Assembly (NCBI RefSeq): GCF_046105845.1 | Contig: NZ_CP151004.1 | From: Escherichia coli | GTDB lineage: Bacteria > Pseudomonadota > Gammaproteobacteria > Enterobacterales > Enterobacteriaceae | Length of the DNA: 64,000 nt | Direction: 5' to 3' (one strand) | Shown: one piece after another, positions 57,300 to 61,430 of the stretch | How positions within the stretch are numbered: position 1 is the first letter of the stretch | How the letters are laid out: the number at the start of each line of letters is the position of its first letter | Notes under the pieces: model-generated | What the model was told of the DNA's origin: nothing | Databases searched by the model: none | The model's input: the letters and a program-made list of their open reading frames with translations, nothing else | Translations under genes and position numbers: made by a program

Positions 57300-57320
57300 T
57301 TCGTTTTCCACTCTAAAACA

Positions 57321-57360
57321 AAGCCAATGGTAGATATTCCGCCATTGGCTTTATTGGTTA
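57321..57360 (+). terminator. Candidate terminator of topB
   Basis: Perfect 10-bp stem AAGCCAATGG/CCATTGGCTT with 11-nt loop followed by TTATTGGTT, about 20 nt after the topB stop. Confidence 0.5.
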
Positions 57361-57743
57361 TACTCGTCATGCTTCAAGTTGCATGTGCTGCGTCTGCGGG
57401 TTATTCGGCCCATCCATGGGCCTCACCCCTTACGGGGCCGCTGAAAGCAGCGTTCAAATCCGCTCCATGCGGATTTGTCGTTCAGCCCAGTCACTTACTT
57501 ATGTAAGCTCCTCGGGATTCACTTACTTGCTGCCTTCCTACAAATCGAATTATTTAGAGTATATGATATAAGTACCCACAGCTAAAATTATAAACGAAAT
57601 ATCTTTATATTCACGTAAGTTATGTTATGGATTGCATCATTATAAATTATTTTTAAACGCAGGGATTGTGAACATTATTCACAAAATGAATATATATAAC
57701 TGCTCTATAAAATGATCAGTTCATTTATTTGAAGAGGATAATT

Positions 57744-59444
57744 ATGATTATCGGTATTGACCTCGGGACGACTAACAGTCTGGCAGCGGTATGGCGAAAT
57801 GGACAAAGTGAACTGATCCCCAATGCGTTAGGCAAGTTTTTAACACCCAGCGTAGTTTGTGTTGACGAAAATGGTATGGTTTTGACAGGGGAGGCAGCTC
57901 GTGACCTGCAACTCATCAAACCACAAAATTGTGCAGCCAATTTTAAACGCATGATGGGCACATCAAAGACGTTTAAATTGGGCGGACGTGAATTTCGGGC
58001 AGAGGAACTCTCATCGCTGATACTGCGTCAGCTAAAAGAAGATGCTGAAAGCTATTTAGGTGAAGAGATAACAGAAGCAGTAATTAGCGTACCTGCTTAT
58101 TTTGGTGATGTGCAACGCAAAGCAACAAAATTGGCAGCTTCAATGGCAGGCTTAAACGTCGAGCGTTTAATTAACGAACCAACCGCCGCTGCACTGGCGT
58201 ATGGTTTGCATAATAAAGATGATGAACATCAATTTTTGGTATTCGATTTAGGTGGTGGTACGTTTGATATCTCCATACTGGAGTTGTTTGACAATATTAT
58301 GGAAGTACGAGCCAGTGCCGGGGATAACTTTTTAGGTGGTGAAGATATTGTCGATATCCTGATCGATGCATATTGCTCAAGGCGGGATCTTCCTGAAAAT
58401 ATTGAATGGCGTGAACCGACACTCCAGCGCAATTTACGCATCGAGGCTGAGCGTGTCAAACGCGTGCTTAGTATGCGCGACGAAGCTACTTTCAGTATGG
58501 AGATTGAAGGAAGGCGATATTACTGGCATCTGACCACAGAAAAATTTGAATTTTTATTACAGACCTTTTTCGAGCGAATACGTATGCCACTGGAACGGGC
58601 AATTCGCGATGCCAAAATTAATATTAGCCAATTAGACCAGGTTGTTCTTGTGGGTGGCACTACACGTATGCCACTGATTCGCAAACTTGTGACACGACTA
58701 TTTGGTCGTATACCGGCAATGCATTTAAACCCGGATGAAGTCATTGCCCAGGGCGCGGCTATTCAGGCAGCACTTAAAGCGCGGCACAGGGAATTACGAG
58801 ATATTGTAGTGACCGATGTTTGCCCTTATACGCTGGGCGTTGATACCTCTAAATCGCTGGGGCATACCCGCGAATCAGGCTATTTTGCACCCGTTATTGA
58901 GCGTAACCGAAGTATTCCTTGTAGTCGCGTTCGTGCCTTTTACACAGCACATGATCAACAAACAGAGGTTAATTTTAAAATCTACCAGGGTGAAAGCAGG
59001 ATGGTGGCTGATAATATTTTCCTTGCGGAGTTGTCAGTGAATGTTCCGCCAAAACCGGCCGGTGATGTGCGTATTGATGTTCGTTTTACGTACGACATTA
59101 ACGGTATTCTTGATGTCGATATCAGCGTGCCACTGACAGGGGCTAAAAATAGTCTGGTTATTGAACAGAATCCAGGGGCATTAACGAAAGAACAAATACA
59201 GCAGTCGTTGTCCAAATTAAGCCTGTTAAAAATTCACCCACGCGATGAACAGATAAACCAGGCCTTTATTGCCCGTCTTGATAATCTCTATCAACTCACC
59301 CTGGCGGAAACACGAGACTGGATAAGCAATTGCTCTCGTCAATTCAGTTATCTACTCGAGAAGCAGGATCCTGATCAACTAGCTGATTTTCGGGCTAAAG
59401 TTGAACCTACATTAGACTCTCTGGAATGGGAGCGTCTGCAATGA
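57744..59444 (+). CDS. Hsp70-family ATPase, HscC-like (specialised DnaK paralogue)
   Basis: Track ORF starts at TTG 57729; ATG at 57744 with AAGAGGA upstream is preferred; actin-fold motifs IGIDLGTTNS, DLGGGTFD and VGGTTRMP plus a C-terminal substrate-binding domain; resembles remembered HscC but is not identical. Confidence 0.8.
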   Translation: MIIGIDLGTTNSLAAVWRNGQSELIPNALGKFLTPSVVCVDENGMVLTGEAARDLQLIKPQNCAANFKRMMGTSKTFKLGGREFRAEELSSLILRQLKEDAESYLGEEITEAVISVPAYFGDVQRKATKLAASMAGLNVERLINEPTAAALAYGLHNKDDEHQFLVFDLGGGTFDISILELFDNIMEVRASAGDNFLGGEDIVDILIDAYCSRRDLPENIEWREPTLQRNLRIEAERVKRVLSMRDEATFSMEIEGRRYYWHLTTEKFEFLLQTFFERIRMPLERAIRDAKINISQLDQVVLVGGTTRMPLIRKLVTRLFGRIPAMHLNPDEVIAQGAAIQAALKARHRELRDIVVTDVCPYTLGVDTSKSLGHTRESGYFAPVIERNRSIPCSRVRAFYTAHDQQTEVNFKIYQGESRMVADNIFLAELSVNVPPKPAGDVRIDVRFTYDINGILDVDISVPLTGAKNSLVIEQNPGALTKEQIQQSLSKLSLLKIHPRDEQINQAFIARLDNLYQLTLAETRDWISNCSRQFSYLLEKQDPDQLADFRAKVEPTLDSLEWERLQ

Positions 59445-61375
59445 ACTGCTGGGAAATATTAGGTTTACAACCTGGCGCGGAAGAACGAGATATTAAGCGT
59501 CGTTATGCGCAACTGGTAAAAAATTGCCGCCCGGAAGATTCTCCCGAAGCCTGGCAACAATTGCACGATGCTTATGAACAGGCTTTACGTTATGACGACG
59601 AAGATCAGTGGCAAGAAGAGGAAGAAGAGCAACCGATCAATATATCCAGGGGTATTGTTCATCCTCGTCCTGTGATGACATTTCGCGCACTCAACACCTT
59701 TTCTGGTCATCCACTTCCTGATGTCACTATTAAATCAGAGGAGGAATTCACCTGGCAAGCCGTGCTGGATATGCTCTGTGAGGAGAATGAAGCAACCCCC
59801 GAACACGCCCCCATGCAACTTGCTAAGGCGTTATCTTTCCTTGAGAAAAAAGATCTCAGCTCACGAATGAGCTTTGAAGAAGCGTTATTACTGCATCTTC
59901 ATCGGGTATTCCGGCCATTATTAACTCTCGCTGCTGCACAAACGTTCAGATGGCATTTAGTTGCAGGCAGTCGTCAACCCGTAATCCAGACAGAAATTAA
60001 CGAAAGTTGTCTTCTTTATTATCGCATCGAAAAAGAAATTACCACTTTCTTTGCCAGTAACTTGTCTCCACTGGAAGAAATGGAAAACGGGAAGGAAATG
60101 GCTACGATTTATCAATCATTAAAGGATAATGAAGAGAGCCTGAAATGGTTTGATATCGCAGTATTAAATAAAATTGCTGAATTTGAACTGTCAGACAACT
60201 ATATGGCATTGTTAATAGAGCGTTTATCATATTCCTGGCGAAAAGAAAAAATGATTCGCAAGTGGAAATTAACAGAACGCTTCAATAATTTAGCAATGCA
60301 ACATCATAGTGGATATAAAAAGTTACTAAACGCCATAAAATTAAAAGGTCTTTTTTATTATCCATCTTTTGTATTCCAGTCCTGCTTACATGCTGCAGAG
60401 CAAGACTATTCACTTGCCTGGTATTCTCTTGGCAAAATGTATTACGAAGGTGATGAGGTTTCACAGGATCTAAAATTAGCCTTTAATTGGTTTAGCCGTG
60501 CCGCGCAGCATAATGTTATCGATGCTCAGTATGCGCTGGGCATCATGTATAGCGATGGAAGGGGCACGGATAAGAATATTAGCGAGGCACGAAAATGGTT
60601 ATTACTTGCTGCCCAAAATGGCAACGCATCTGCGCAATATGAGCTTGCCCGTATCTCACGCTTTGCTGTTGAGCCATTACGAAATTATGAAGAAGCATTA
60701 CAGTGGTATTTATCTGCCGCCACACAAGGACATGAACTTGCCCAGTATGAATTGGGACAAATGTATATACAAGGGATTGGCGTGGAGCGCGATGAGGTAC
60801 AGGCCCATCGTTGGTTTTTGCAATCGGCGGAACAGGACCATTCAGACGCACAATATCATACTGCCAGCTTGTATAGTGAAAGTGAGAGTATTCCACAAAA
60901 CCAGGAAAAAGCGCAGTACTGGTTTACCAGAGCTGCAAAAAATGGTTCCGGGGATGCCATGTATGAATTGGGTAAATATTATTTAACCAACAATGATGAT
61001 CCTGAAAATAATGCTGAGGCTATTCAATGGCTTACTGGTGCAGCGCAGCGTGGGAAAATAAAGGCGATATTTTTGTTAGCCGAAATGTATCTCTACGGTA
61101 CAAAAGATGTCGCAAAAGATGAAAATCATGCGCTGCACTGGTACGAAAAAGCGGCGCGTTTAGGGGCAACCGAAGCGCAACACCAGACTGCGGCAATGTA
61201 TGCTCAGGGGACAGGCACTAAAATTGATAATAAACAAGCATGGATGTGGCTAACAATTGCCGGAAATAACAACCCTTGGATTGAAAAAGATGCGTTGCGA
61301 TGCTTAATGTCGGAACAGGATATTCAGGATGCAGAACAAACGGCTGCAAATTGCAAACGTCTGCTAAGGATTTAA
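59441..61375 (+). CDS. J-like-domain protein with acidic linker and C-terminal Sel1-like repeat array; putative co-chaperone or adaptor of the upstream Hsp70
   Basis: ATG overlaps the upstream TGA stop (ATGA) with GGGAG 8 nt upstream; N-terminus resembles J-domain helices I-III but has RPE where HPD is expected; about seven Sel1-type repeats in the C-terminal third. Confidence 0.75.
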   Translation: MNCWEILGLQPGAEERDIKRRYAQLVKNCRPEDSPEAWQQLHDAYEQALRYDDEDQWQEEEEEQPINISRGIVHPRPVMTFRALNTFSGHPLPDVTIKSEEEFTWQAVLDMLCEENEATPEHAPMQLAKALSFLEKKDLSSRMSFEEALLLHLHRVFRPLLTLAAAQTFRWHLVAGSRQPVIQTEINESCLLYYRIEKEITTFFASNLSPLEEMENGKEMATIYQSLKDNEESLKWFDIAVLNKIAEFELSDNYMALLIERLSYSWRKEKMIRKWKLTERFNNLAMQHHSGYKKLLNAIKLKGLFYYPSFVFQSCLHAAEQDYSLAWYSLGKMYYEGDEVSQDLKLAFNWFSRAAQHNVIDAQYALGIMYSDGRGTDKNISEARKWLLLAAQNGNASAQYELARISRFAVEPLRNYEEALQWYLSAATQGHELAQYELGQMYIQGIGVERDEVQAHRWFLQSAEQDHSDAQYHTASLYSESESIPQNQEKAQYWFTRAAKNGSGDAMYELGKYYLTNNDDPENNAEAIQWLTGAAQRGKIKAIFLLAEMYLYGTKDVAKDENHALHWYEKAARLGATEAQHQTAAMYAQGTGTKIDNKQAWMWLTIAGNNNPWIEKDALRCLMSEQDIQDAEQTAANCKRLLRI

Positions 61376-61386
61376 TTAACTCAGGG

Positions 61387-61420
61387 AAAATCGTCTGGTT
61401 ATAAGGAAAACCAGACGATT
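61387..61420. terminator. Bidirectional terminator hairpin between the Sel1-repeat gene and gdhA
   Basis: Perfect 12-bp stem AATCGTCTGGTT/AACCAGACGATT with 8-nt loop, flanked by A/T tracts, lying between convergent stop codons. Confidence 0.5.
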
Positions 61421-61430
61421 ATAATAACGA

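Follow-up and report, generated by a model that had tools for sequence, protein, structure and literature searches.

What kind of chaperone system lies between topB and gdhA in some strains of Escherichia coli, how it came to be there, and whether its unusual co-chaperone can work, are the questions raised by a 64,000-nucleotide stretch of E. coli DNA (RefSeq assembly GCF_046105845.1, contig NZ_CP151004.1; hereafter the window). topB ends at position 57299 and gdhA, on the minus strand, at 61431; the interval holds two intact plus-strand open reading frames (ORFs), the first (57744–59444) encoding a 566-residue Hsp70 and the second (59441–61375) a 644-residue protein, here termed J-Sel1 or the adaptor, in which a J-like domain and a polyacidic linker are followed by an array of Sel1 repeats. 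The ATG of J-Sel1 overlaps the TGA of the Hsp70 gene as ATGA, a coupling kept in relatives, and this arrangement, first described in a sequence-only reading of the window, is confirmed by Pfam searches and ORF analysis. The ATG at 57744 was chosen as the Hsp70 start over an upstream TTG, being preceded by AGAGGA and agreeing with the 566-residue models of relatives from the Prokaryotic Genome Annotation Pipeline (PGAP). We consider it reasonably probable that the pair is a chromosomally inherited, self-contained and dedicated client-targeting machine, a fourth Hsp70 system in which an HscC-class ATPase is coupled to its own soluble co-chaperone; dedicated client targeting, raised as speculation in the sequence-only reading, is the most likely mechanism.

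The ATPase is a member of the HscC class. The Pfam HSP70 model matches residues 2–491 (E=1e-134), and in alignment with DnaK and HscC the DnaK-numbered residues D8, K70, R167, E171, D194 and T199 are intact, with the catalytic D8, K70, E171, D194 and T199 equivalents invariant, as in the Hsp70 superfamily at large. HscC-class proteins are recognised by a length of 550–580 residues, deletion of DnaK 76–101 in lobe I, absence of the GrpE-signature loop, a 4–8-residue L1,2 insertion in the β-subdomain of the substrate-binding domain (SBD-β), and a shortened lid helix B (Mayer 2021, PMC8215388); every one of these is found in the alignment, with 566 residues, the 76–101 deletion, no GrpE loop, an 8-residue L1,2 insertion (SKSLGHTRES) and a short lid. 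Sequence identity is 43.6% to K-12 HscC, 37% to HscA and 34% to DnaK, rising to 54–57% for Pseudomonas proteins named HscC, and relatives bear the name ‘molecular chaperone HscC’ in their sources. The gene is nevertheless no orthologue of K-12 hscC, given the identity of only 43.6%, a locus other than ybeL–rihA and some 124 genomes that carry both genes. Across Escherichia and Klebsiella the protein is 75–91% identical, with a ratio of non-synonymous to synonymous substitution rates (dN/dS) of 0.08–0.20.

The co-chaperone was modelled with AlphaFold2 from an alignment of 15 relatives (predicted local distance difference test score, pLDDT, 86.9). Its J-like domain (residues 1–53; 59441–59599, plus strand) folds in the model into three helices (3–7, 15–26 and 35–49), helix IV not being clear, and the first 52 residues match DjlB and DjlC in hhalign with 97% probability. 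Where J-domain proteins carry HPD, J-Sel1 reads RPE, within a C-R-P-E-D motif at residues 29–33 (R30-P31-E32 at 59526–59534); R30 is nearly invariant in the family, with His at this position in one E. whittamii paralogue only, and P31 and E32 are invariant. An acidic, disordered linker follows (residues 54–101; 59600–59743, plus strand; pLDDT <50), which includes the acidic stretch DDEDQWQEEEEEQ, differs in length and sequence among relatives, and has a dN/dS of 0.9 against E. whittamii.

Beyond the linker lies an all-helical, family-specific middle domain (residues 102–320; 59744–60400, plus strand), for which a separate model reached a pLDDT of 90.9. A Foldseek search of this domain against AFDB50 returned at E<1e-3 only its own Escherichia/Shigella/Klebsiella family, and a sequence search of the PDB returned no relative; its first half is weakly common to the J-like proteins that partner other HscC-type Hsp70s. 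The possibility that it conceals a DUF1266 or DjlB-type domain was considered and ruled out, the hhalign probability being below 1% against YbeR, YbeU and YnjI as well as DjlB and DjlC, and neither protein of the pair has a Pfam match to DUF1266 (PF06889). The Sel1 part (residues 324–607; 60410–61261, plus strand), presumably a client- or partner-binding solenoid, comprises eight repeats: Pfam places eight Sel1 matches across residues 328–610 (six at E<0.001, two weaker), and the model shows eight helix pairs at pLDDT >90, as expected of Sel1-like repeats, so that the array seen in the sequence-only reading stands, at eight repeats rather than about seven. Solved Sel1-repeat structures (4bwr, 8sxq, 6ok3 and 1ouv) are retrieved by Foldseek at E=1e-17 to 1e-9, and relatives have between 8 and about 13 repeats. 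The protein closes with capping helices (616–620 and 625–642) conserved in close relatives, encoded together with the stop codon at 61262–61375 (plus strand).

Does replacement of the HPD histidine mean that the co-chaperone is broken? In all 11 other contexts with a readable upstream side, a J-like gene lies directly 3′ of the HscC-type Hsp70 gene (E. coli variants; E. fergusonii; E. whittamii; Klebsiella oxytoca; K. spallanzanii; Pseudomonas; Chitinivorax; both pairs of the uncultured-bacterium contig ERR14048345_3155, L017; contigs L023 and L024; with L025 too short to read), and RPD is the motif of the J-like proteins that follow such Hsp70s in Pseudomonas, Chitinivorax and two metagenomic contigs. 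A profile of the J-like and middle regions, searched against 1.84 billion representatives, returned 2,330 matches at E<=1e-10; among the best 150 of these the motif is RPD in 91, RPE in 36, NPE in 12, HPE in 4, QPE in 2 and HPD in none. Two more sampled members, with NPE and QPE, directly follow an Hsp70 52% identical to that of the window. RP[DE] is thus strongly conserved in more than 100 representative clusters, always beside an intact Hsp70, which marks it as a conserved variant and not a product of decay; the pair represents one form of a widespread module of an HscC-type Hsp70 with an [R/N/Q]P[D/E] J-like protein, and no paper was found that mentions an ‘RPD motif’ in J domains. Transmembrane segments are predicted in 99 of 106 full-length representatives, while the soluble, Sel1-bearing form accounts for only 5 of the 106, of which the two with a source name are from E. 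fergusonii and K. oxytoca.

The same evidence bears on the idea that the pair is a decaying relic, no longer working for want of the catalytic His and surviving only in genomes that have still to delete it. In favour of this idea, the pair has been lost from, or replaced in, most E. coli, truncated variants of both genes exist, dN/dS exceeds that of the flanking core genes and the motif is not HPD. Against it, neither ORF is disrupted in the window or in the great majority of other copies, clusters of intact sequences having 1,759 and 2,793 members; dN/dS values of 0.08–0.29 (0.08–0.20 for the Hsp70, 0.17–0.29 for the adaptor) denote purifying selection; the RP[DE] motif is conserved as described; and retention of the pair dates back to before Escherichia and Klebsiella diverged, or over an equivalent time. 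We regard decay as very unlikely.

In the DnaK–J complex, H33 bonds to L391 of the linker through the backbone carbonyl of the latter, P419 is the residue against which P34 packs, D35 bonds R167 and Q378, and K48 pairs with D477 (Mayer 2021, PMC8215388). R167, Q378 and P419 are kept in the pair Hsp70, and Arg could also donate to the linker backbone carbonyl. The K48 equivalent in the J-like family is an invariant Gln (Q39), and D477 is Thr in every Hsp70 whose partner carries an RP[DE] domain; the salt bridge has therefore lost its two halves together. Further clade-specific changes cluster in the J-binding sheet (DnaK 212, 216 and 219), the linker (386 and 390) and the NTT loop (416–417). 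These patterns suggest that Hsp70 and RP[DE] J-like domain have co-evolved into a probably orthogonal pairing, a covariation drawn from 13 sequences without correction for phylogeny. The conserved gene pairing and the retention of R167, Q378 and P419 lend indirect support to stimulation of the ATPase by the RPE domain.

The mechanism that we propose would begin with docking of the J-like RPE domain at the interface of the Hsp70 nucleotide-binding domain, linker and SBD-β, where it would trigger ATP hydrolysis, with the acidic linker acting as a flexible connector behind it. The helical middle domain and the eight-repeat solenoid would select the client to be handed to the Hsp70, and the Sel1 repeats, standing in for the usual membrane part of the co-chaperone, would redirect the machine to a cytosolic target. 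An analogous division of labour is known from eukaryotes, where SEL1L/Hrd3 with BiP and ERdj5 in endoplasmic reticulum-associated degradation, and proteins joining tetratricopeptide repeats (TPR) to a J domain, use a Sel1/TPR solenoid and a J module to direct Hsp70 to clients. Foldseek also matches the Sel1 part of J-Sel1 to SEL1L and Hrd3; the likeness is one of analogy only, with no evidence that the architecture shares descent, with a different compartment, and with J domains that carry HPD.

The Sel1 array could alternatively bind the C-terminal tail of its own Hsp70 (…E/D-R-L-Q/L-COOH), or serve as a scaffold for another factor, and would then be no client selector. The Hsp70 C termini of this family share a conserved acidic-Arg-Leu motif (EWERLQ, DAERLL, ERDRLL), and recognition of an EEVD tail by eukaryotic TPR co-chaperones is an established mode of Hsp70 binding. 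The tail, however, changes little while the array varies greatly, repeat number included, which is unexpected for a fixed, intramolecular-type contact, and Sel1 repeats are altogether lacking from most relatives of the co-chaperone; this alternative we consider unlikely.

Several further points weigh against a dedicated client-targeting system. The Pfam DnaJ match is weak (residues 3–46, E=2e-4) and covers model positions 2–51 of 63, leaving out helix IV. Truncated Hsp70 and J-Sel1 copies occur in some strains (P0004–P0006 and P0124; H106), which makes the system dispensable there, and a promoter and terminator scan returned sites no more frequent than in shuffled sequence, with neither a strong sigma-70 consensus nor a convincing promoter upstream of the Hsp70 gene. 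The small, phylogenetically uncorrected sample behind the covariation counts on the same side. Since the His of HPD has been essential in every J-domain system tested (PMC8215388), the RPE domain might bind the Hsp70 without stimulating it.

The nearest characterised relative is the ‘third Hsp70 system’ of K-12, comprising HscC (Hsc62), DjlC (Hsc56/YbeV) and DjlB (YbeS), in which DjlC, with an HPE motif, stimulates HscC (Kluck 2002, cited in PMC8215388). The K-12 locus runs ybeQ, ybeR, djlB, ybeT, ybeU, djlC, hscC, in agreement with the content given in the sequence-only reading, and the proposed module-by-module resemblance also holds: the Hsp70s share the HscC-class architecture, the J-like domain is nearest to DjlB and DjlC, the Sel1 part is 31–36% identical to the YbeQ and YbeT Sel1 proteins, and both loci are AT-rich and vary between strains. 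The differences are equally clear. The Hsp70s share only 43.6% identity, that of the pair being nearer to Pseudomonas HscC (about 55%), and the locus is another one; the pair reads Hsp70 then J with translational coupling, whereas in K-12 djlC and hscC converge; and RPE stands where DjlB and DjlC have HPE. The pair co-chaperone is soluble, with no predicted transmembrane segment, and fused to its Sel1 repeats, in contrast to the tail-anchored DjlB and DjlC (one segment each) and the separate Sel1 proteins of K-12. J-Sel1 does not belong to the DjlB/DjlC family, aligning with it over the first 52 residues only, with no transmembrane segment and with no DjlB_C Pfam domain on record for its own family. 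Unlike the K-12 hscC locus, the unit holds no DUF1266 gene.

Closer in gene order are the annotated but uncharacterised Pseudomonas-type pairs of ‘HscC’ and a downstream J-like membrane protein, the Hsp70s of which are the 54–57% identical proteins noted above. Their J-like domains, reading RPD or RPE, share the consensus CWxxLG…IKRxYAxLLKxxRP[DE]…AYEQAL with J-Sel1, and the early middle region is weakly common; they differ in having several predicted transmembrane segments and no Sel1 repeats, where the Escherichia/Klebsiella form is a cytosolic protein that has 8–13 Sel1 repeats and a helical domain peculiar to it. The notion of a recurrent, swappable module is borne out to this extent, that an Hsp70 with a J-like protein (and Sel1 or TPR proteins) recurs in other bacteria and that the topB–gdhA site alternates with a DUF1266 gene; DUF1266 itself is no part of the pair. 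On contig ERR14048345_3155 (L017 1–13019), two HscC-type Hsp70 and RPD J-like pairs stand side by side, grouped with Sel1/MORN, TPR and DUF4034 proteins in an assembly that echoes the multi-module K-12 hscC island.

How the locus is occupied across the species was surveyed in 5,426 complete E. coli genomes. For K-12, the sequence-only reading placed ynjI at this site, in the same orientation, and this proved correct: ynjI, encoding a DUF1266 inner-membrane protein (domain E=3e-25), occupies the site in 3,457 genomes (3,506 with any match), and the pair takes its place in 351–354 (at >=80% coverage; 373 with any match), about 7%, among them CFT073, ATCC 25922 and 83972. The remaining 1,550 or so genomes, a figure obtained by subtraction, are presumed to be essentially empty at the site; the one example inspected (ampC_0069, L006 5925–6000) has only a 76-bp topB–gdhA spacer, and rare remnants of the locus occur, as in HH97. 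The 76-bp spacer holds a palindrome resembling repetitive extragenic palindromic sequences (GCCGGATAAGGCG…TATCCGGC). The pair genes are annotated in hundreds of genomes, CFT073 included, albeit under generic names only (in PGAP, ‘Hsp70 family protein’ and ‘J domain-containing protein’ or ‘SEL1-like repeat protein’), and no paper was found that characterises the topB–gdhA pair.

Three forms of the islet are seen, namely a 266-residue signal-peptide ORF with the Hsp70 and one adaptor (CFT073); the same ORF with the Hsp70 and tandem adaptors of 649 and 647 residues (FDAARGOS_1284); and the Hsp70 with one adaptor only (this window, Ecol_316, 19KM1831 and EC21Z-137). The very AT-rich additional ORF, of 266–267 residues, lies between topB and the Hsp70 gene in CFT073-type genomes (L014 1631–2431) and in E. 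fergusonii and E. whittamii (L009 7434–8234; L012 3458–4261), has a GC content of 0.34–0.35 in the E. fergusonii and E. whittamii copies, and encodes an N-terminal signal peptide with no Pfam match; it is missing from the window allele. That it might be a DUF1266 relative was ruled out by the absence of a Pfam match and by hhalign probabilities below 1% against YbeR, YbeU and YnjI. The core flank at 45000–57299 reaches a best identity of 98.7% to any of the 5,426 genomes, and the islet 97.0–97.7%, which indicates a source lineage with no close representative among complete RefSeq genomes.

The compositional contrast noted in the sequence-only reading is real. Positions 57300–61430 have a GC content of 0.431, against 0.495 in the remainder of the window, and tie for the lowest value among all 4.1-kb windows (mean 0.491, standard deviation 0.027); GC content at third codon positions (GC3) is 0.388 and 0.380 for the two genes, distinct from the 0.547–0.600 of selD, topB and gdhA. 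A second stretch, at 28200–32000, is equally AT-rich (GC about 0.43) and holds three ORFs, the two longest of which (491 and 556 residues) resemble membrane-bound diguanylate cyclases. We take these to be yeaI/cdgI and yeaJ/dgcJ, together with yeaK. Low GC by itself is thus no marker of accessory DNA in the window.

The GC3 contrast (0.38 against 0.55–0.60) and the patchy distribution within E. coli would suit a foreign islet that recently displaced ynjI, and it is on this point that AT-richness, as a mark of recent insertion, fails. The pair sits at the identical topB–gdhA site in E. fergusonii, E. whittamii (with two adaptors) and K. oxytoca, and in K. spallanzanii it adjoins gdhA, again with two adaptors. 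Synonymous divergence (dS) from E. whittamii is 0.61 for the Hsp70 and 0.76 for the adaptor, in the manner of the flanks (selD 0.42, topB 0.51, gdhA 0.56), and the K. oxytoca pair has a GC3 of 0.58–0.64, near the 0.68–0.71 of its genome. ynjI is likewise AT-rich (GC 0.41). The last 40 or so codons of topB (57150–57299) differ by locus state, TopB being 648, 653 or 651 residues long across the pair, ynjI and empty states, which places a haplotype recombination boundary inside topB; the tail QARSTPVR(R/Q)FRG of pair-bearing E. coli is shared with E. fergusonii and K. oxytoca and is one residue off in E. whittamii, as against QAKRT(P/S)VRQFRG in K-12 and the empty allele, so that the pair haplotype matches the outgroups. 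No integrase, tRNA, mobility gene or flanking repeat was found around the islet, and phages and plasmids hold no relative of the pair beyond J-domain-level matches beside HscC genes on megaplasmids. A contig scan with the middle-domain alignment returned a single locus, in K. spallanzanii, using one narrow peptide pattern with little bearing on distribution. A shared site across species, flank-like dS and a GC3 that tracks the host in K. oxytoca together indicate that the pair is old and no recent AT-rich import, and a recent foreign origin is largely refuted and most improbable. On these comparisons, the pair is an old Escherichia/Klebsiella resident, lost or replaced in most E. coli.

The tempo of the two genes differs and has to be weighed for what it says about function. 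Adaptor identity is 37–77% across the taxa in which the Hsp70 is 75–91% identical; the adaptor stands in tandem copies in E. whittamii, K. spallanzanii and some E. coli. Its gene-wide dN/dS of 0.17–0.32 indicates purifying selection, and gene-wide positive selection, also considered, was not seen. Within E. coli, the Sel1 region is where synonymous and non-synonymous diversity both peak, a pattern more suggestive of recombination than of positive selection.

Such an adaptor might be expected of an anti-phage or conflict system, in which fast-evolving Sel1 adaptors would recognise a foreign protein, such as a phage protein or an incoming toxin, for the Hsp70 then to unfold it, sequester it or take it apart. 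The pair is accessory and AT-rich, its adaptor diverges far faster than its ATPase, adaptors occur in tandem with variable repeat number, and the best Sel1 matches outside the family are fused to proteases, kinases, caspases or TIR domains. On the other side of the ledger, PADLOC-DB 2.0 gave only marginal matches, to PDC-M61B (E=8e-4, part of the ATPase fold) and PtuA (E=1e-6, about 50 residues of Sel1 repeat), nothing meaningful for the phage link that the sequence-only reading had floated, and PADLOC, PHROGs and NCBIfam hold no informative family for the pair besides Hsp70 and Sel1; the pair carries no effector domain; the locus occupies a fixed place among core genes, and its inheritance looks vertical; the neighbours in the contexts examined are housekeeping genes with no adjoining defence genes; the pair is absent from phages and plasmids; and gene-wide dN/dS is well below 1. 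The architecture also differs from that of GTPase/Hsp70 conflict systems (Kaur et al. 2020), and no paper was found tying HscC or HscC-type systems to phage defence. We therefore hold a conflict role to be improbable. The same low standing attaches to a bolder form, an Hsp70-based surveillance system in which duplicating, fast-evolving Sel1 adaptors would keep pace with a rapidly changing foreign or toxic protein and pass it on to a dedicated HscC-class unfoldase, with Arg in place of His making it orthogonal to DnaK and HscA; if true, this would amount to chaperone-driven immunity or detoxification of a new class.

A dedicated system of the kind preferred here can also be set against the canonical hscC island, itself accessory (4,377–4,410 of 5,426 genomes). 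A chimeric query joining the pair Hsp70 gene to canonical hscC matched 4,650 genomes at 4,790 places, implying about 364 genomes with the pair Hsp70, of which some 240 lack canonical hscC and some 124 carry both; strict mutual exclusion, tried as a candidate, is ruled out by the latter. The raw odds ratio of about 11 for the pair without canonical hscC denotes enrichment; it carries no correction for phylogeny and probably reflects B2 lineages. CFT073 (NZ_CP051263.1 715001–765000) lacks the whole canonical island, ybeL being followed directly by rihA (locus 2922–4384). Because of this, the ‘hscC’ that a 2026 preprint found to be more strongly induced by hypochlorous acid in a CFT073 rcrB mutant (bioRxiv 10.64898/2026.03.12.711259) may be the pair Hsp70; this is a tentative lead, and the only one, for the stress-related role raised in the sequence-only reading.

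The only other paralogues of ynjI in K-12 adjoin DjlB and DjlC, and the alternation of pair, DUF1266 gene or nothing at one site hints at a link between DUF1266 and HscC systems; no paper was found on the function of DUF1266, or of ybeQ, ybeR, ybeT, ybeU or ynjI. A DUF1266 gene of enteroaggregative E. coli 042 is presumed, by its locus tag, to lie in the hscC island. Its expression rises 308-fold in an hns mutant (PMC7582179), which makes H-NS silencing of the AT-rich topB–gdhA unit plausible by analogy; AT-richness would then probably keep the unit silent except under particular conditions.

The intergenic sequence supplies candidate signals for such a unit. Directly 3′ of the topB stop, a plus-strand hairpin at 57317–57355 (14-nt arms, 93% complementary, 11 nt apart) is a likely topB terminator and is also present in the other pair-bearing alleles that align over that stretch. 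It is followed on the minus strand by a repeat of the enterobacterial repetitive intergenic consensus/intergenic repeat unit (ERIC/IRU) type (57356–57565), which is no part of the chaperone system; its core at 57486–57522 matches the ERIC consensus at 37 of 37 positions (0 expected by chance), the segment is present in the window and Ecol_316 alleles and missing from those of EC21Z-137 and 19KM1831, and copies are found elsewhere on the chromosome in many E. coli genomes. The AT-rich region upstream of the operon (57566–57743, plus strand; GC about 0.37 in the covering 500-bp windows), presumed to contain the promoter and with an AGAGGA ribosome-binding site ahead of the ATG, is conserved in EC21Z-137 and more diverged in 19KM1831. 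Between the convergent J-Sel1 and gdhA genes, a perfect hairpin at 61389–61420 (12-nt arms, 100% complementary, 8-nt loop), not called by the simple terminator scan, is a likely bidirectional terminator. A search of 57000–61600 against Rfam returned no match.

HscC-type Hsp70s are the least understood of the bacterial Hsp70s, and this locus gives model uropathogenic E. coli strains (CFT073, ATCC 25922 and 83972) an HscC-class system; in CFT073, the one strain checked, the canonical hscC island is lacking, so a deletion there would be free of that paralogue. The Sel1 and middle domains of the soluble, Sel1-fused form offer a handle for finding the clients of HscC systems. More broadly, the pair belongs to a large co-chaperone family in which a conserved Arg (or Asn or Gln) stands in for the ‘indispensable’ His of HPD; if RP[DE] domains still trigger ATP hydrolysis, the HPD rule needs revising, and the motif may serve to insulate Hsp70/J pairs from one another.

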